In this document: one piece after another, positions 1 through 58,950 of the stretch
Layout of the letters: each line of letters begins with the position of its first letter
Numbering within the stretch: the stretch's first letter is position 1
Source: Octopus sinensis
Lineage: Eukaryota
Reading direction: 5' to 3'
Length of the DNA stretch: 64,000 nt
NCBI RefSeq assembly: GCF_006345805.1
Contig: NC_043002.1
Location: 72,416,001-72,480,000, forward strand
Translations under genes and position numbers: made by a program
The notes under the pieces: generated by a model
Seen by the model: only the letters and a program-made list of their open reading frames with translations
Told to the model about the DNA's origin: nothing
Databases searched by the model: none

Positions 1-351
1 AGTTGTTTAATTGGAGTTCATGTTGTTATATTTCGCACCACTAAAATGTTGTAAATCTTTAAATACCAGTATCGGCAGATTAGCTGTAACGCTGTTTTCC
101 TATCTTTTGTAATTAATCCGCTATTCTATAGACATTCTTGGCCCGACTCCAGATTCCAGATACTATATTTCTATTTTATAGCTACAGTAAAATAAATAAA
201 TAAATAAATAAATAGATAAATAAATAAAGTTAAAAACTAAGGTGAAAGCTTTCAAAAATATATATATTAGATTAAGTAGTCTTGACGATTTAGATTGAAA
301 ACCGAACTCTTTAAATGAATTAGGGATTTACTTCGAGATCGACCACTGGCT

Positions 352-457
<106 letters not shown>

Positions 458-1078
458 TCTGCTTATATGAATGATTTCTTGTAAAATACGTAAATTTCGT
501 TTGAAAACATCGCTTTTTATATTTATTACTTTACTTCTACTAAAGCTTGTTCAGGAGCGGAAAAGACGTTTCTCAACCACTTTGCTTATAAATATTATGA
601 AGACGAAATATAAACAAGATAAAGTTTGCAGGGGAGAATGTCAAACACCTCAACGCTGCGTGAATCCTGGTAATTGTAAATATTTGCCTTGTTTGTTTTT
701 TCGATCATAGCTATTATTGTGTATAGTAATTTCAATTAAGGATATCAACTGTTTTTTTTATTTTTTTTTATTTTTGTCAAAGAATATACATATAGATACA
801 TCTATTCATGAAACGCCATCAAATGGCCTTTTCTGACATGTAAATAATGTTTGCCTCCGACTAATCTCCCACCATGAGGTTCAATTTGAAATACGGTAGG
901 CATGTTTTTATTTGAATACCAGTCTTTAAAGGATTGTTGAAACTGGTGTAATGAAGGGAATAGCTTCAAAAGGTAAGCCGCGTAGCTCTAACGAAACATT
1001 ATTTACGTCATTCTTGTACAACATATTTCCCAGAGCAAAACGTTCTCTTTAATCAACTTTATAACCGTGTGATGATAT

Positions 1079-1288
1079 TCCTTTCTACTATTAGCACAAG
1101 ACCGGAAATTTTAGGGGAGTGAGGCGCGTCGATTACGTTGACCCCAGTGCTCAACTGGTATTTATTTCATCGATCCAGAAAGGATGAAAGGCAAAGTCGA
1201 TCTCAGGGGAATTTGAATTCAGAGCATAAATTCGGAAGAAATTCTACCAACGATTGCCTGCTAACGATTTTGCCAGCTCACCGCCTTC
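1079..1288 (-). mobile_element. tRNA-derived SINE, family B, monomer
   Basis: Reverse complement of the ggcgagctggcagaa...gagttcaaattcc...gtcgactttgcctttcatcc...gtaccag unit that recurs throughout the window. Confidence 0.8.
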
Positions 1289-1563
1289 AACTGCATGATA
1301 ATACCGTTTTCTTCTGGCGAGAAGTCGGCCGAGCTGGCCGAATCATTAGAACACCGGGCAAAATACCTAACGGCATTTCGTCCGTCTTCATGTTCTGAGT
1401 TCAAATTCCACTGAGGTCGACGCTACCAAATCCACTCACAAGGCTTTGGTCGGCCTGAGGCTATAGTAGAAGACACCTGCCCAAGCTGCCACGCAATGGG
1501 ACTGAACCTGGAGCCATGTGGTTGGTAAGCAAGCTACTTACTACACAGCCACTCCTACGTTTA

Positions 1564-1656
<93 letters not shown>

Positions 1657-1877
1657 TAATAATATAAGGGTAGCAAAAAAAGTCTAGAAAAAATTCTCCG
1701 CTACCAGCGGTCTAGTGAGAAAGAAAAGATAGTCAAAGACTATATAATATACATTCAACAATATAAGGAATGGCCCTGATAAGCCATTCGACTCACTAGA
1801 AAGAGCAGCCAAACTCAAACCGCTAAATAGTTGTAATTCTGAAATTGAAAGAGAAATAAAAACGTTTACCCGTTTCA

Positions 1878-1971
1878 TCTCTGGACTATGCATAGTTTCG
1901 ACAAACCTTGTAAACAAATTAATTAAATTAAATTAAATTTATTTACAACTGGCGTGTCTCGTCAGCAGAGA
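1878..1971 (-). ncRNA. Type I hammerhead ribozyme
   Basis: Minus strand reads TCTCTG-CTGACGA-GACA..(AT-rich hairpin)..TGTC-GAAA-CTATGCATAG-TC-CAGAGA: full core, three stems, GUC cleavage triplet. Confidence 0.8.
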
Positions 1972-2303
1972 AGCCGAGGACGAGAATATGTCCACGAGGC
2001 GACAGCAAGGAAGCCTCAAGCCTATATGCTCTAAATTTTCAAAATCCACCGCCACCGCGCGGTCTTCTCAGCAGCAAATATAAACTGCTGATTTAATTTC
2101 AAAATTAGCTAAAAAATCATTAATTAATAAATATAAGGGTAGCAAAAAATTCTCCGCTACCAGCGGTCTAGTGAAAAAGAAAAGATAGTCAAAGACTATA
2201 TAATATACATTCAACAATATAAGGAATGGATTTTGAAAATTTAGAGCATATAGGCTTGAGGCTTCCTTGCTGTCGCATCGTGGACATATTCTCGTCCTCG
2301 GCT

Positions 2304-2398
2304 TCTCTGCTGACGAGACACGCCAGTTGTAAATAAATTTAATTTAATTTAATTAATTTGTTTACCAAAGTTTGTCGAAACTATGCATAGTCCAGAGA
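2304..2398 (+). ncRNA. Type I hammerhead ribozyme
   Basis: Stem I TCTCTG(2304-2309)/CAGAGA(2393-2398); CTGACGA 2310-2316; stem II GACA/TGTC; GAAA 2377-2380; stem III ACTAT/ATAGT; predicted cleavage after C2392. Confidence 0.82.
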
Positions 2399-2821
2399 TG
2401 AAAAGGGTAAATGTTTTTATTTCTCTTTCAATTTCAGAATTACAACTATTTAGCGGTTTGAGTTTGGCTGCTCTTTCTAGTGAGTCGAATGGCCTATCAG
2501 GGCCATTCCTTATATTGTTGTATATATATATATATATATTTCTCTATATACATATGAGTATATATATCCAAATTAAGAGAGAGAGAGAGCATGTAAAATT
2601 TAGGCTACATATGTTTCCTAGTTAGCAGATCTTCTGGTGTAATAATTAATCAACGAAGGTATCTTAATTTTTTTTTCCGTTTATCCAACTACGATAAGGG
2701 AAAAGCCTACAACCTTCGATGCTAATAAATTGTTATTGTTCCTAAATATTTTTTTTTATACCTACCACGGACTGCTCGAAGTTCGCAAATTTCCTACACT
2801 CAGATTCTCACATCTTATGAT

Positions 2822-2899
<78 letters not shown>

Positions 2900-3039
2900 T
2901 GCGTGCGTGTACGTACGTGTGTATAAGAGTCTTTATATGTTAGAAAATTGCTGTCAAAAGATGTGAAAATATTCTTCATTGTCCTGAAAATGCCCCACTA
3001 TAATGGCGATTGTCTCAATTGAATTCAATTGTCCAAACA

Positions 3040-3260
3040 GCCCAAAATCAACTGCCCGAGTTAGTCCGGGGGCGGCTGGCAGCATAAACGACAGCAGAGG
3101 AGAAGAGGGATCATTGGAATCACTGGGAAACGGCAGTTGGTGAGATCGGAAGAGGTTATGAATGTTACGGATTGGTGGGCGAAGGTTGTGATAAAGAAGT
3201 GTGAGGTATGAGGGAAGGGTAGAGGTGATTAGATGGGATGTACTTTAAGAAGCTCAACTG
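3040..3260 (-). pseudogene. Possible decayed Penelope-like ORF fragment (RT to endonuclease linker)
   Basis: Translation LPSYLTLLYHNLRPPIRNIHNLFRSHQL...DSNDPSSPLLSF resembles the PLE 'LVLTYHP..PI..I...PPLLSF' region; weak. Confidence 0.3.
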
Positions 3261-3774
3261 ATTTTGATTTTCAGCCGGTTTATATTATTGCTATAGCAGA
3301 GAGATAGAGTGAGAAAGGGAAAGATAGTACGTGTGTATAATATGAGTAGTCCACAGATGTGTCCCCTTAACATAATTTTCAAGAAGAAATCAGCGTGACG
3401 TAGTTCGGCTTGGCTGAACTTTTTAGTAGTAGGTGAAGTCCATCCGATGGACTTCTACACCTTTTCCGTCCATCGAAATTCTCTCACAGGACATGGATCG
3501 ACTCCAGGCTATAGCTAGAGCATTTACCCGGTATATACAATGAGGAAACGAACGTAAGATATCTTCATCGTCCAGCAAGCTTCTTAACCATGCCCTAAAT
3601 ACATACGTGCACGCAAGCACAGACAGACACATAGAGAGAAAGCTATAGAAAGATAAATAAATAGATAGATAGACAGACGGCGCATATTCTCAGGTACATT
3701 CATACATACATACATACATACATACAGGCGTGCATGCATGCATACATACATACATACATACATACATACATACA

Positions 3775-3807
<33 letters not shown>

Positions 3808-4295
3808 GTATATATATATATATGTATATATATATACATACATAGTAAGTAATTAAGGGTTCAGTAACGATTTGCCTCACCACACACCGAATTTAGAAAT
3901 AGCAGTCAAAAAGTTTTGGCTATTCTTTCTACTTAATTACTTAGTATTAATTAAACCTTCCTTGAATGGGTCTTTTACATGCCGAACTCTACTTGGTGAA
4001 AAAAATGATTATTTCAAAATTAAATAATTTCACCCTTTATTATTGATATATACATACATATATATGTACACATATATATATACACATACATACATGCATA
4101 TATATATACACGCATATATATATACATACATGTATAAATATATATACATATAAATCTCTATATATGTATATATATACATATATACCTATACATCTATATA
4201 TGTATACATATATATACATACATATATATGTACAGATATATATATACACACACACACGCACACACACACACATACACACACACACACACACACAC

Positions 4296-4333
<38 letters not shown>

Positions 4334-4340
4334 CATATAT

Positions 4341-4517
4341 AGGGGAGAATTCACAAAAAATCAAAAGACGAAGACAGGTGGTGTAGACAACAAACAGATG
4401 TATTAGTATAACGCTCGGGAAGTGAAAAGGTCTTTAACGTTTCGAGCCTACGCTCTTCCACAGAAAAGAACACAGAAAGAAACAAGGAGAGAAAATAATG
4501 TGTTGTGGCTAGCGATC
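4341..4517 (-). mobile_element. Short TA-flanked pLTR-like element with a variant minimal hammerhead motif
   Basis: Minus strand cttt-t-CTGTGGAA-GAGC-gtag-GCTC-GAAAC-GTT-aaag; bounded by (TA)n; motif matches the copies at 53733 and 54070. Confidence 0.55.
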
Positions 4518-4605
4518 TATATATATATGTCAATATGTCATGTGAGATAATAGTTTCTCTTTTAATAATTTCACTATTAATAGTGAAACTATTATCTCAT
4601 ATTAC

Positions 4606-4830
4606 AATAAAGACGTTATTGTTTCACTTTTGACGCGAAATACCGAAACGGTCTAAGAGAATGCTCAGGGCTCGCATTAGGCAAGAAGTTGAAAAGATTT
4701 TGGCCCATGACATTCCATGGACTCTAAGTAGTGTATGTGTAAAATTTGGATGAAATCTGTTGGGTAGTTCTCGGGGTTTAGTGATGGACACATACATGCA
4801 GACAGACAGCACATATTCTCAGGTATATAT
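4606..4830. mobile_element. Non-autonomous Helitron/HINE-like fragment
   Basis: aaatttggatgaaatc...agttctcgg...acagacagacag core typical of DINE/HINE-like elements; the end motif catattctcaggta recurs at 3683. Confidence 0.4.
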
Positions 4831-5629
4831 ATATATATATATATTCACACACATATGTAAACACACATACATTAGCAGAATTAGAAGTGTTTTTGTCCTT
4901 GACACAAACACTCCTAATTCTTTGACCTCATCAGCTAAGCAGACATCACCATATCTGCCAAAGTAATGATGAAAAAATCACTAAATCAATGAACGATATT
5001 GTACAATGTTTGGCTTAAAAAGACGTTATTGTTTCACTTTTGACAAATAGATTCTGTTAATTCTTTCCCATCCTTTGTAGCACCCGAGGAAATATCCTGG
5101 TGACCAGACTGCCAACTTCAAGTGGTCCACGTGCATATTTTATTTTTCACTCCTCTTTTGAAGAATGTGAAGTGGTTATTTCCAGTTGTGGTTATTTTGG
5201 TCCTCTTTGGAAACAATCATTCTGTTTTAGTAAACTCAAAACACTTCCTTTTTGATTACCAAATATTTTCACTTTTGTTTGCCCTCTTGTATAACGACGA
5301 TTAACTTCCAGTCGGAAATCTGTATGTGAAGATATTTTTCATGTTTATGTTTTATTGTGAAGGCAATGTGGGTAACCTTCTCGACCAAAATAATCTAGAA
5401 TTAGAAAATGAAACTTCTGTAAGTAAAGAGCAGAAAGAACTTTAAAAATCGTTTCAAAGTAAATGCCATCATACATGTTTACATACTTTATATAATTCAA
5501 TGAAACTTAAATCGCATCTTAACAATGAACTTTACATACATGTATAAATGAAATAAACAAACTCGAAAAGAATCAAATCTAAGTCGTTCATTTCTTTAAA
5601 TATCAAAGCAGTTTTCCATTTAAATAAAT

Positions 5630-5739
5630 ACATAAAACATCATTACAGCACCTAAGTATTCACAATTCATAAGATTCCATTACAACACCTAAGTGTCCAC
5701 AATACATAAAACTTCATTACAACGCCTAAGTATCCACAA
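5630..5739. repeat. About 37-bp tandem repeat, 3 copies
   Basis: cattaca(g/a)c(a/g)cctaagt(a/g)t(t/c)cacaa recurs three times in tandem. Confidence 0.8.
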
Positions 5740-6034
5740 GTAGGCTGGTTATTGCTTTATATTGGGTTCAAAATTTTGGCACAAGACCAATAATTTCGGA
5801 GGAGAGTGTAAATCGATTACATTGACCCCACCCCCACCCCAGTGCTCAACAAGTACCTATTTTATCGACTCCGAGAAGATGAAATAGAAAGTCGACCTCA
5901 GCGTAATTTGAACCCAGAACGTAAAGCTAGAAGAAACGCTGCTAAGCATTTTTGTCCGGCATGCTAACGATTCTGCCAGCTCGCTGCCTTGGATTTCACT
6001 AATATTTTCGTGTTTGTTGCCTAACTAAACTCGT

Positions 6035-17354: not shown

Positions 17355-18995
17355 CTTAGAATAACTTAGAAAGGTTTTGGCCAGTATTGGCCCAGGCCAT
17401 GTCTAACTTAATAGCACCACCTGGCGAAGTCTTTCAATTCAGGATTTGGGCACCGAGGCCCATTCGAGCAGAGAGTTATTGTTTGCGGAGATATATCCGG
17501 ATGTGGGTGGTTTGTCCGGGACTGTTTGAAGGAATTTGTCCAGAGACTTCTTGAATTTTGTGTGGTCAGTTTCTGTTTTGACGTGTCCTGGTGTAATGTT
17601 GAAGAGAGCGGGTCCAATTGAGGTGAAATAATTGTGCCGTATTGTCGTTATGTGATGCGATTTGGATCTTTGTTGTGGACGGATGGCACGTGGTCCAAGC
17701 CTTGGATGTATTTTGAAGGTGATGCCAACATCATTCGGACAGTGCTGATGGAATATTTTCCACATCATACAGATAATGTAGCGTTCACGGCGTCGTTGGA
17801 GTGAATACAGTTTCAGCTTCTCTAGTCTACCCCAGTAGTCAAGGTCTGACATGCCATCTATCTTTTTTGTGATTGACCTTTGGGGAGCTTCAATTCTCAT
17901 AATATTTTGTTTTGTGTAGGGAGACCACAGTGGACAGCAGTATTCAAGGTGGGGTCGGGCAAAAGTGGAGAACAGAAGGATAATAGTGTGGGAATCTCTC
18001 GACTAGAAGGTTCTGAGAATCCAGGAACACATTCTGCGGGCCATGTCAACTTTGCTGCTTATATGAGTAGCCCAGCTTATGTTGTTGTCCACTGTTACTC
18101 CCAAGTCTCTGATGTTGTTGGACGCCATTAGAATTTCTCCAGAAGGAAGGGAGTATGGGAGTTTCAGAGCGTCCTCCCTTCCAAAGTGGATCAGTTCAAA
18201 TTTGTCTTCGTTTAGCAACATGTTGTTCTTTTCCGCCCATTGGACAACAGCCAGTAGGTCTGACTGAAGGTTTATTCGGTCATCCACGCTATTGATGACC
18301 TTCTGGAGCTTGGAGTCATCAGCGAAGGTTCTGATGTTGCTGTGTTTGATGGTGTCAGTAATATCATTTATGTAGACGATGAAGAGAAGTGGGCCCAACA
18401 CAGTGCCTTGTGGGACACCACTGCTGACTTTGGCTGGGCTGGATTTGACTTCTTCGACTACAACATGTTGGGTTCTGTTAGACAGGAAGCACTTGATCCA
18501 CTGCAGCAGCTTTCCAGTGACACCAATATTGGACAGCTTTCTCAAAAGGATCTTATGATCAACCCTGTCAAAGGCCTTGCTGAAATCAAGGTAGATGACA
18601 TCAGTGTTGGAACCATCTCCCAAGGCTCTCAAAATGTCATCAAAATGATGCAGTAGCTGCGTCAGGCAATCTCTTCCATTACGGAATCCATGCTGGTTGG
18701 AGTTCAGCATATTATGACTCTCAAGGAAGTGAGTCATACGCGATCTCAGCACTCTCTCAAATACCTTAATGATATGAGAGGTGAGTGAGATTGGACGGTA
18801 ATTCATGGCAAGCGATTTGTTTCCTTTTTTGAAAACTGGGACAACAGACTGGGATAGAAGGTCTTCTGGTATATATCCAGCATCCAGTGAGTTCCGCCAC
18901 AGATTGGCTAGAGGGGGTGCAAGTTGGTTTTGACACATCTTCAAGACACAAGCAGGGAACCTATCGGGACCTACTGCTGAATTATGCTTCATTTC
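17354..18995 (-). mobile_element. 5'-truncated CR1-group (CR1/L2-like) LINE; RT pseudogene with one nonsense codon
   Basis: RT motifs YRPISLTS, QHGFR, YLDFSKAFDRVDH, SGVPQGTVLGPLLF, FADD. ORFs 18003-18992 and 17439-17900 are in the same frame, separated by a single TAG, with LEYCCPLWSP in between. Tail (ttctaagtta)x2. Confidence 0.93.
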
Positions 18996-19643
18996 CTTTA
19001 TTTCTACCTACCTACATATGTACATGCATACCTACCTACCTACCTACCTACCTATGTGCATACATACATGCCATACCAGGGACGTGCCGCCTATGTAGGT
19101 CAGGTAGGCAGTGCATACCTTGAATAAAATAGATCGATAGCAACATTTTCCTTTTATGGCAAAATATGTAAATAATTCAATAAAATTATGAAGGTTATTC
19201 TGATTACTATTAATAAAATGCAAAATATTTTATTTTTCTGTAGATTAGCTAGACATTATTCGCCACTGCTTTTCAAACTCAGTATTTAAGCTATGCAGTA
19301 TACGTGCTGTAGTACACGTGCTGTGTACACTTCTACAACACCGATTTGTTTACATGCTATAAAGGCAGAAATAGATCTGCCATCAACTCAGTTGCGTACC
19401 TGTGTTTCGCTAATTTTTTGTGTTTTTCTACATAAAGGTCACCAACTGCCTGCCCCGAGTAATTACTAACAGCACATGCTGATACATGCATACATACATA
19501 CATACATACATACATACATCTTTTATATAATTCTTGTGACCCGCAATAATAGTTCAACAATTTTGACATGTTATGCAAAATAATGAATTGCCTTTCTTTC
19601 CCAACCGCTAAACAAAAGAAGACATTGAATTACATATATATAT

Positions 19644-40551: not shown

Positions 40552-43500
40552 GAACGATAAAACAGAGCTCCGAAATCTATTCACAAACATCGAAAACAAG
40601 AACATCGTATGGAGCCAAAGATTTACTAACAAAGGATTGGACTGTATCCGAGTAAGTAATGCTCATTGAAATTTATTACTATTTTCGAAACGAAATGATG
40701 TATTTTGACTCGATATCATCTCCACTTCTAACACAACACATGTAAACATGCGTGATACATTACGATCCATCAACACCAGATCCTCCCCGACCCCAAACAC
40801 CATGTACAAAGGAACTACGAAGAAATTAAATACCACCGATATTATTCAACCCAAGAATAACAATCGGGAGGTACGTACTTTAAACTTACATCACAAAATG
40901 TACGAAAAACTACACGTGTAAAACAATGTGACAACAGAAATGAACGGTCCGGTACCCTACGAAAATGACGACCGTCAAAATAATGGGCCGGACGTTGTTC
41001 CTCATGTCCCGCAAATAAAACCCAAAAGACATAAATGGACACGTGAGGAATACATTTCTATCCTACACGCATACTTCACAGCAGTGCTCTACACAAAAAA
41101 TGAAAACACAACAACACATACATATAAAATATGGAAGGAAAATAACATAAATATAGACTTGGATACAGCAATGAACCCTAATAAACTAGCTAACGCACGA
41201 ACATACATTCTCAACGCAAAAAAAAATATCGGAAATAGAAATAGAACATCTAAAAGAAAAAATACACCAGGAAAATGTAGATAGAAGCCACACAACAATG
41301 CCCAATAATATAAACACTGAAACAGTAAAACACGAAGACAAACGTAACATTCCCAACAAACACGATGTAAATAAAAAAACAACAAACCCAGACCGTAAGG
41401 ATGCATAATAATACACGACAAACAGCAAGCCAAAACACAACAAGCAAACATATAAATAAGAAAGAAAGCGACACAAATCTAAAACCTGGAAACAACGAAG
41501 GGGAGCCTAATGATTATGATAATATAAAAAGTAAAATAATCAAAGAACTGAAAACCACAGAGCTCAAAATGGACCACCGACCATACCTCCCAAAAATCAA
41601 AATAGACGAAACAACAACACCAATTATAAACAGCATAAACCTAGCCGTCACGGAACTAATAGCCACTGAAACAAAAAGCGATATCACTGAGCTAAATGAC
41701 TTAGTATACGCAGCAGCCACTGCAGCCACAAAAGAAGCTGGATACTCACTCAAACCCATCCAAACAGGAGTACCACCACCCAAACAAACTCTGTGGATAA
41801 ATAACATCCAAAACAAAATACAAAAAATGAGAAAAGATCTGTCGATTCTTAATGAAATCAGTAGACAATCAACGCTACTGAGCAACAAAAAGAAAACAAA
41901 AATACTCTGCAAATATAACATCACAGAAAAAGATTTACCTGAGATAAAAGAAAAGCTGAAGCAAGACATCCTTGCCAAAGCACAAAGGATCCGCCGGTAC
42001 GAGAAACGCCAGCGCTTCTTTGATCAAAACAAAAAGTTCTACCAAGAACTTGGCAAAATTAAAATAGAAATCACTGCAGCACCAACGGCAGAAGAAGTGG
42101 AAGAATTCTGGAGAGAAATATGGTCGGCGAACGAACAACCAAAAAAGAGGAGTATTAAAACAACAAACTCAGCATCTGAGCAAGTTTGGACCCTCATAAC
42201 AACTGAAGAGGTCACCCAGGCACTGCAAAGACTAAGCAACTGGAAGGCACCTGGGCATGACAAGATTCCCAACTTCTGGTTGAAATGTCTAACAGGAATG
42301 CACAAAAAGCTGGCTGAAAACTTTAACAACATACTAGCAGAGCCAGAGACGATGCCTGAATTGCTCACGAAGGGGAAAACCATCTTAATTCTCAAATCAA
42401 ATGAGACAGCAAAATCAGAAAACTACAGACCAATAACCTGCCTCCCTACTATGTTCAAGGCATTTACTGCAGTGATATCGCAAAGGTTGAACAACCTGTT
42501 TCCAGAAGAGCAGAAAGGATGCCGCAAAGGCTCATATGGCTGTAAAGATCAACTAATGATTAATAAAGCCATAACTGAAGACAGCCACAGAAAGAAGAAA
42601 GGCCTCAGTATGGCCTGGATCGACTACAAAAAGGTGTTTGATAGCATCCCCCACACATGAATCCTCGAAACACTAGCCATTAACAAAGTAGCACCAACAA
42701 TTATAAAATTCATAGGACACTCTATGAATAAATGGCAAACAGTGCTACAGCTCCAAACAAAAGAGGGACTCATGAAAACCAAAGCCATCCCCATTAGAAG
42801 AGGAATATTCCAGGGAGACACGCTCTCCCCACTCCTTTTCTGCTTGGCACTGTCACCTCTATCTGATATGCTAAACAGAACTGGATGCGGATATAAATGT
42901 TACGGCAAAACGATCAGCCACCTTTTATATATGGATGACCTAAAACTATACGCTGCAAATGACAAACAGCTGGAAACACTATTAAAGACAGTTCATGGAT
43001 TTACCAGAGAAATAGATATGAAATTTGGATTAGAAAAATGCGCCAAAGTAACCATGAAAAGAGGAAAAACTAGTTAAGAGTAACAACATCACACTAGATA
43101 AAACCAATGAAATAAAGAATTAGACCAAAGCCAAACTTACAAATACTTAGGAATCCATGAACTAGATAAAACACAACACACACAAATGAAAGAGAAAATA
43201 AAAAAGAATATTATAGACGAGTTAGATCAATACTAAAAACAGAGCTCAATGCTAAAAACAAGATAATAGGTATTAACACTTTAGCTGTCCTAGTTATAAG
43301 TTACAGCTACAATATCCTTAACTGGACACTAAATGAACTGAGCAAAATAGATAGGAAAACAAGAAAAATAATGACAGGGTCTAGGATGCATCACCCAAAA
43401 TCTGACATAGAAAGACTATATATACAACGTATAGAAGGTGGTAGAGGCCTTATACAGCTGGAAAACTACTATAAAATAACCACCATAGGACTGCAAAAAT

Positions 43501-57689: not shown

Positions 57690-58950
57690 TCCAAGTAAAT
57701 GCCGCTCGGTGAATTTTCCCTTTGTGAAATTTACCTAGTCTCCAAAGCTCTTTCATTTAAGCTGTGCAAAATCATATTTCTTTGATTCGATAACATTGAT
57801 CTTTCGAGAACCGTCCACTTAATGTTGTAGTCGAAGTTCCAGTTTCTTGGTTTCCAGATGTGTTTTTCTAGCGTCAAGGAATTCATTTTGTTAGTGTGTC
57901 TGAAAGCTAACACCTAGGTGTAAAACCTTTTTTAACGTTCTCTTGTACATGGCCATGCAACTTACTTTATTGATCTGGTTTGGGGTACTTGAGGGGACAT
58001 CAGCTACGTACGCTACCGATTTTACATGTAAGCTCTGGCATTTCTGCATAAGTAATGAGAGATGATCTACTCGGAAGAGTTACTTAGGATGATTGCTTTC
58101 ATGTTAAATCCGAAACTGTAGCTTATCTTCACAGAACACCTATCTAAAAATTTCCTGTATCTATAATCGTTAGGGAAATGATTGTCTACCAGAGCCAGAA
58201 ACATTTTACTTACGTCGGTCTTAGCTTTCAGAAAGTGAGGACAAGCCATATTATATGTTTGAGTTTATACCTGGACTGTGATTGTGTGCTGTGCTGGGAG
58301 CATGAGATGTTTTGCCTTCAATCTGTTAGGACCTAACTGAGTAAGGGGCCGTTCAATCAAATCACTTTAGAAAGAGAGGAGATAAAGATTTTCATATTGA
58401 TATTAAACATAAGGTTTTCAGATCAATCGGAGTGGTAGGACTACTTTGGTAATGAATCCAAATTTCTCATCAGGTTTATGAAAGGTTTTGTGAGTATTTG
58501 AATCTGTGCATAGGGATAGCTAAGTAAATTATTATCGTAACTTCAAATCCTGTTATCAAACTCTGCTATACGATTTTTCAGAAAGTATCTAGAGTGCTCA
58601 TCGCAGTTGAGTGATGCGGATAATCCATTGAGTGATGAGGATAATCCAGTAAAGGAGAACGACCCCCTTTGGCCATAAATGACCATGGGATTGCTCTTAG
58701 AAAGTTGTTCTGCGAGGCAAGTGTCCGGGTAAAGTTGTTTATGGAAGACCAGCAGTCGACTATGTATACCAGCCTCCACTTTGGTGCCATCTGAACCAAA
58801 TCATTTTTGGTGTTTCTGAACCAAGTTAACCTTCCAATTTCGTTTAAATCCCTCGGTGTCTTTTTGGACACTAATCATATATCTGACATAGCTGGGTTTA
58901 TTTTCTGTAGTCTAGTCAGCGATTTGGCTTCGTTTACGCCATAGTAAGTC
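57690..58950 (-). mobile_element. Decayed Penelope-like element (RT remnants plus GIY-YIG region)
   Basis: INPAMSDI; KTDVSKMFLALVDNHFPNDYRYRKFLDRCSVKISYS; AFRHTNKMNSLTLEKHIWK...DYNIKWTVLERS, as in PLE ORFs; many stops and deletions. Confidence 0.75.

Follow-up and report, generated by a model that had tools for sequence, protein, structure and literature searches.

The window, the whole stretch of 64,000 nucleotides of Octopus sinensis DNA that was analysed, carries near its left end an insertion of a repeated, hammerhead-bearing element within a TA microsatellite. The parts of the locus are as follows, with positions counted from the first letter of the window.

1561..1655, no strand: left (TA)n target microsatellite, assigned from the sequence
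1654..1756, minus strand: "tail" of roughly 100 nt, bounded by two fixed 3' ends, T1 and T2
1661..2129, minus strand: full 469-bp non-coding unit, 36% GC, whose RNA sense is the minus strand
1768..1789, minus strand: conserved hairpin directly upstream of T2, seen in the sequence and predicted in the circular fold
1878..1971, minus strand: type I hammerhead with a long stem II and a palindromic stem III, predicted to cut between 1884 and 1883
2130..2229, minus strand: partial second unit, head to tail with the first, forming the 5'-truncated end of the direct arm
2227..2229, no strand: 3-nt microhomology at the inversion junction
2227..2520, plus strand: inverted arm (294 bp), ending at T2 and lacking the tail
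2304..2398, plus strand: second hammerhead copy, with C17 at 2392
2521..2539, no strand: right (TA)n target microsatellite

The anatomy given in the preliminary description, namely a 469-bp unit, about 100 bp of a second unit and an inverted copy, was reproduced from the sequence. T1, at about 1654-1660, extends a few bases into the next unit, T2 lies at about 1753-1756, and a CCUUA(U/A)UAUU-like motif precedes both. Compared with the first unit, the second (2130-2229) shows one substitution, a 13-bp deletion and one extra base near the junction. The inverted arm corresponds to unit positions ~96-388 and differs by five substitutions and one gap in about 293 nt, none of them within the ribozyme core, so that the arm differences do spare the core as had been claimed. 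The hairpin at 1768-1789 is a candidate protein-binding or start signal; unit positions 121-150, which contain its 5' arm, vary at 4.2% as against 7.6% elsewhere. No tRNA was found in the 469-bp unit, and a small open reading frame of 64-69 codons after the ribozyme was dropped, reaching at least 55 aa in only 20 of 85 arms. The deletion of 12-13 bp in the second unit, which recurs at other loci (L001, L005, L006), was at first thought to mark a shared heterogeneous master; this idea was set aside, and recurrent slippage is considered likelier, because terminal units (L099, L124) carry the deletion too, as do both of the internal units at L009. Around the element, an abundant short repeat adjoins it at 1428-1555 and also occurs in the flanks of other loci; it resembles an octopus SINE. 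Reverse-transcriptase frames at 18003-19004 (minus strand) and 41371-42657 (plus strand), as well as a weak Hydra linker fragment at 58088-58222 (minus strand), are unrelated to the element.

Each of the two hammerheads comprises a 6-bp stem I, CUGACGA, GAAA, a 12-nt palindromic stem III and GUC (C17 at 2392 and 1884), while stem II closes an AU-rich hairpin of 55-56 nt. The CUGANGA, GAAA and UH core elements are present together with stems I-III, as in type I hammerheads, and the motif reported earlier for each arm was thus found at both places. The further claim of a hammerhead on both strands stands insofar as both sites are real; they represent one ribozyme copied by inversion, and the unit itself has a ribozyme in one polarity only. 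In the whole 64-kb window, a generic motif scan returned these two hammerheads and two weak chance sites, and the fold constrained to the hammerhead is predicted to lie 2.1 kcal/mol above the minimum. The Infernal search that had been proposed for the hammerhead model gave a negative answer at this locus: Rfam cmscan of positions 1-6000, at E up to 1, included no hammerhead family among its 43 matches, probably because of the long stem II.

Conservation was assessed in 52 loci that had not been selected on the ribozyme core, each cell being compared with the column majority. Core cells differed in 19 of 758 cases (2.5%) versus 1,651 of 21,842 (7.6%) elsewhere, the free position N7 differed in 15 of 56, and the core was intact in 41 of the 54 segments that span it. 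Compensatory pairs were observed in stem II (AU 30, GC 20, GU 4; n=56), stem III (UA 56, AU 10, CG 2; n=70) and stem I (CG 46, UA 7; n=55), in a tally that counts sequences rather than independent events. Two blocks outside the ribozyme are conserved as strongly as the core, for example unit positions 421-469 (2-4%). The core is therefore kept across copies, as the earlier reading presupposed, and, judged by these substitution patterns, the hammerhead ribozyme is under selection. Stem III is predicted to be unstable alone (0 kcal/mol) and to reach -15.9 kcal/mol as a duplex with a second copy, and its loop remains palindromic. Dimeric cleavage has been described for animal type I motifs (PMC4209133), and by analogy two copies of the octopus ribozyme may pair by way of the palindromic stem III and cleave as a dimer. 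Read-through on either strand of the window copy would leave the core buried in a predicted duplex of 300 bp. The window copy cannot release a monomer and is probably a dead end. A subfamily (L091, L106, L107, L113) carries the core CCGAUGA instead of CUGANGA, and its stem III is still palindromic.

The element belongs to a family of hundreds of copies. Searching the animal's own genome (2.72 Gb) with the unit gave 2,395 first-look candidates, 40 of which were scored; genome-wide, the exact hammerhead pattern of the family matched 103 times and an exact 23-mer from outside the ribozyme 390 times, with no match for either reversed control. From several searches, 87 distinct loci were mapped after removal of duplicate places, about 33 of them being the best matches to the whole unit, so that the sample favours long arms. 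At least (TA)3 is present at both ends in 71 of the 87 loci and at one end or both in 84. Related subfamilies range from about 90% down to 67% identity, and similar sequence occurs in contigs of sequencing runs from three organisms; of the four runs concerned, two also contain the head-to-tail joint. Other short tandem-unit families of like architecture are present: family B, of ~535 bp and without DNA similarity to the 469-bp unit (L073:6264-7375, L208, L209), family E, of ~497 bp and with an altered core (L101:281-1322), and family F, of ~500 bp (L236:4030-4480). At L028:1664-1709, about 45 nt inside the unit of both arms resemble the upstream part of the hammerhead family L074; judging by this resemblance, a template switch between two RNAs is possible. 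In three-unit arrays (L009, L018, L132) the middle unit is identical or nearly identical to a neighbour, and in L009 its first half matches one neighbour and its second half the other, as expected from unequal crossover or assembly duplication.

The 5' ends of these copies are ragged, and their 3' ends fall at two fixed sites, T1 and T2, about 100 nt apart. Loci with a single arm (n=43) end at T1 in 18 cases, at T2 in 24 and elsewhere in one. Among 43 inverted pairs, 32 combine T1 with T2, nine combine T1 with an unassigned end, two show T1 on both arms and none shows T2 on both, so that 32 of the 34 pairs called at both ends are of the mixed kind (p = 7e-8 if even odds are assumed). Neither T1+T1 call is secure: in one, an arm begins at position 16 of the unit and lies in non-TA DNA, and in the other, an arm of subfamily E ends elsewhere. 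Over 32 pairs, one arm matches its partner at 1,960 of 2,072 polymorphic sites (94.6%), compared with 71.4% between loci, which indicates that both arms come from one template lineage; pairs at L030, L101, L134 and L135, with 6-10 subfamily-type differences, may be exceptions to this rule or alignment noise. A 14-bp target duplication flanks a non-TA insertion at L097, a single case, and none is evident at L120, L015 and L011.

A partial tandem, an inverted copy and a tail on one end constitute the signature of Penelope-like elements (PLEs) (Craig et al. 2021, PMC8557442; PMC3846280), and the octopus copies show this structure, with a partial tandem, an inverted 5'-truncated copy and a tail on one end. 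In vitro, a PLE of Anolis nicks both strands, and two internal start sites define its tail (Frangieh et al. 2024, PMC11167929). The element is thus supported as a non-autonomous PLE or non-LTR retrozyme kind, and the earlier identification as a non-autonomous, hammerhead-bearing retroelement of this sort is upheld by the conserved core and the lack of an attached PLE ORF. A DNA-level repeat (MITE, satellite or fold-back element) bearing a chance hammerhead-like motif, with which the fold-back-like inverted arms and TA flanks and the missing Rfam hammerhead match would agree, is largely refuted and highly improbable in view of the fixed 3' ends with ragged 5' ends, the partial tandems and the compensatory changes in all three ribozyme stems.

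Independence from PLE coding sequence was addressed by tblastn of two Neptune ORFs and four Hydra pieces against the 87 loci. A match to a Neptune or Hydra ORF lies within ~1.5 kb at six loci, and with these queries an ORF continuous with the 5' end of an arm was seen at none of the 87. Apparent exceptions were rejected: at L033, a Neptune ORF seeming to end in the unit belongs to a distinct Neptune copy that has a TA-like end of its own (compare L064), and at L009, L020, L024, L028, L124 and L242 the ORF fragments are either detached from the arm or situated downstream. At 37 of the 87 loci, the end of one unit is joined directly to the start of the next with no ORF between. Since no arm runs into an ORF and direct junctions are frequent, the unit is regarded as an independent non-coding entity and not as the ordinary pseudo-LTR that the preliminary description had kept as an alternative. 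It is improbable that the copies are truncated ends of some autonomous PLE, now rare or lost, with the unit as its pseudo-LTR. Truncated ends do dominate PLE families, other long-stem hammerhead families of this genome include Hydra pseudo-LTRs, and the mapped loci number only 87; against this stand the direct junctions and missing ORFs just described, and the short-unit families E and F, which show no upstream ORF in 37 loci and one downstream Hydra fragment.

Which autonomous element supplies the enzymes can be approached through the hammerheads of the same genome. A looser pattern gave 10,578 exact genome-wide matches to long-stem-II type I hammerheads, compared with 34 for the reversed control, and several of these hammerheads are pseudo-LTRs of Hydra-clade PLEs, recognised by their RWK, DKT and CxCx5C motifs (PMC8557442) and falling into many families with 46-100% protein identity. 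Among the Hydra ORFs, one of 947 aa is intact; Pfam gave no match for it. The Hydra PLEs here possess canonical long-stem-II hammerheads, a palindromic stem III, (TA)n ends and tails of 77-160 nt, and Hydra-type inverted pairs combine one short and one long end in all 13 resolvable cases, five of which show an ORF match in the stretch examined; three further pairs are unresolvable. Some Hydra ORFs (L202:3692-4468, L206:2874-4367, L230) contain long asparagine-rich inserts, such as have been reported in rotifer Penelope elements (PMC3846280). A driver was also sought through the GIY-YIG Pfam family, a short-stem pattern, subfamilies E and F, and Hydra protein, and these routes yielded no sequence-matched partner. 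Compared with 38 Hydra loci (L200-L237; blastn, word 7), a partial sample of the Hydra families, the unit gave nothing better than E 0.024, and it has no DNA similarity to the Neptune or Hydra loci sampled. The case for a Hydra driver therefore rests on shared architecture: the (TA)n target, the long-stem hammerhead and the long tail are held in common, while similarity of the 3' end is missing and the short end follows the ribozyme by 35-60 nt in ORF-linked Hydra families versus ~130 nt in the 469-bp unit. By analogy of structure, the Hydra clade is our best guess and the likeliest driver, at clearly better than an even chance. Mobilisation of the same element by Neptune-clade PLEs appears unlikely, if not negligibly so; Neptune families with intact ORFs of 775-781 aa that also target TA are abundant here, which counts against a Hydra driver, but their hammerhead-like motifs have altered cores and a short stem II, their tails measure ~35-45 nt, and they share no DNA similarity with the unit.

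Very probably, therefore, the locus represents one insertion of a multi-copy 469-base hammerhead repeat in a TA microsatellite, likely pasted there by the reverse transcriptase-endonuclease of an autonomous PLE, most likely of the Hydra clade. This explanation builds on the copy number, the TA targeting, the lack of an ORF, the two fixed 3' ends, the occurrence of one end type on each arm of the inverted copies and the single lineage of both arms, all of which were observed. The borrowed PLE protein would nick both strands of (TA)n, and reverse transcription would begin at two places within the RNA, with T1 used for one strand and T2 for the other. Two truncated cDNAs would then be joined head to head through microhomology. 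The template would exceed one unit in length and run uninterrupted through the cleavage site; it would be either a tandem transcript left uncut or a circle of 469 nt made by paired hammerheads at tandem loci with two sites.

Several features bear on the nature of this template. The cleavage site is crossed by 100 of 123 T1/T2 arms, and by 18 of 30 in the set picked with the 23-mer outside the ribozyme, and no pile-up of 5' ends was seen at the site (4 of 135 at unit positions 219-227, with 2.6 expected). For these two reasons a cut linear monomer was not the main template; a small cluster of 5' ends at unit positions 209-216 (8 of 135) fits microhomology to TA. Of the circular or tandem RNA template invoked in the preliminary description, the greater length than a cut monomer is retained, and the choice between circle and tandem holds as an either/or only. 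The circular monomer is predicted to fold far below 40 shuffled sequences (z = -7.8), and retrozyme circles are likewise strongly self-paired and fold far below shuffles (PMC7229834). Two cleavage sites in one arm, in the form of at least two consecutive hammerheads arranged head to tail, the arrangement by which retrozymes are recognised in bioRxiv 10.64898/2026.07.22.740005, could release a monomer; they occur at only 8 of the 87 loci, the window copy not being among them, and three of the eight may be later duplications or assembly artefacts. Divergence within loci is 3.0% for tandem copies and 3.1% for inverted ones, in a tally that includes the segmental duplicate L007 and the internal duplications of L131; such equal values favour neither circle nor multimer. 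A 469-nt circle has, in our estimation, about an even chance of having served as the template. A template that was always an uncut linear multimer, with the hammerhead kept for protein-assisted trimming or RNA pairing and no circle formed, is a serious contender that falls somewhat short of an even chance. Unprocessed RNA is indeed the main substrate of the Anolis PLE (PMC11167929); on the other hand, the arms mostly measure 1-1.8 units and few loci are long enough to template them, the lineage has persisted through subfamilies that are 67-90% alike, a circle would regenerate such lengths without erosion, and related animal retrozymes accumulate as circles (PMC7229834).

Beyond the insertion itself, the units may tentatively be regarded as circular-RNA parasites of Hydra-clade PLEs, a wider reading that we hold to be possible and rather less than probable. 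In what would be a general mechanism of insertion, a PLE dimer would grip one RNA at the two start sites flanking the tail and copy it simultaneously from both nicked strands, each strand using its own site, with strand displacement carrying synthesis around a circle closed by the ribozyme. Parasitism of this kind would explain the T1+T2 rule in the present family and its counterpart in the 13 of 13 Hydra-type pairs, the overlapping arms of one lineage despite copying in trans, and the copies longer than one unit. Counted against the explanation given above for the locus are the scarcity of loci with two cleavage sites in one arm, the cleavage of only one of nine predicted retrozyme dimers of Xenopus in vitro (Li, Clavereau and Pollet 2026, bioRxiv 10.64898/2026.07.22.740005), and the insertion of the Anolis PLE, which did not need cleavage in the experiments available from that report (PMC11167929).

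The closest known systems include animal non-LTR retrozymes (Cervera and de la Pena 2020, PMC7229834; bioRxiv 10.64898/2026.07.22.740005), with which the family shares a non-coding unit of a few hundred bases, a GC content under 45%, one type I hammerhead per unit, head-to-tail copies, a strongly self-paired monomer and co-occurring PLEs. Unlike retrozyme arrays, it consists mostly of dispersed insertions of 0.5-1.8 units with inverted arms; its 469-nt unit exceeds the circles of 170-400 nt (PMC7229834) and lies within the range of 51-972 bp (bioRxiv 10.64898/2026.07.22.740005), its stem II closes a 55-nt hairpin, and it is known from sequence alone. Hydra-clade PLEs (PMC8557442) resemble it in their (TA)n target, canonical hammerhead, partial tandem or inverted structure and two 3' ends, and the Hydra families of this genome additionally share its long stem II, palindromic stem III and long tail; the unit differs from them in lacking an ORF and DNA similarity to the loci sampled, and in having its first 3' end farther away from the ribozyme. 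The octopus family Hydra-1_Obim, described in the supplement of the same work, has a hammerhead with a short stem II (7 bp, 8-nt loop). The Poseidon element PAc of Anolis (PMC11167929) is alike in that two internal starts downstream of the hammerhead define the tail, the target is AT-rich and both strands are extended; it differs in being autonomous and, in the in vitro data available from that source, in showing no strand difference in start site, in contrast to the pairing of T1 with T2 here. The usual PLE tail is given as 30-40 nt (PMC11167929). Non-autonomous Chlamys elements such as MRC1 (PMC8557442) are also non-coding PLE derivatives with head-to-tail copies, but their 3' end resembles that of autonomous partners and, as far as the available parts of that account go, most Chlamys elements lack canonical hammerheads.

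Non-LTR retrozymes have been published, as has the proposal that they arose as non-autonomous PLE sequences (PMC7229834; bioRxiv 10.64898/2026.07.22.740005), and sequence homology of retrozymes to PLE pseudo-LTRs has been shown, within the accessible portion of the latter report, only in frogs. Among cephalopods, 235 Rfam hammerhead-1 hits have been recorded in the giant squid (PMC6962438). The class of element and its link to PLEs are therefore already known, and the locus is an ordinary one for this genome. A description of the 469-bp hammerhead family was not found in the literature, the search having covered publications and not repeat databases, which may hold the family. What the analysis adds is, accordingly, a retrozyme family not found described in the literature searched, and a connection, at the level of structure, of retrozymes with the Hydra clade, which has been little studied. 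It also puts figures on the rule that the two arms of an inverted insertion begin from different start sites, and it brings to light a large load of long-stem-II hammerheads in the octopus genome, which went undetected by standard Rfam and Pfam scans in those cases where these were tried.
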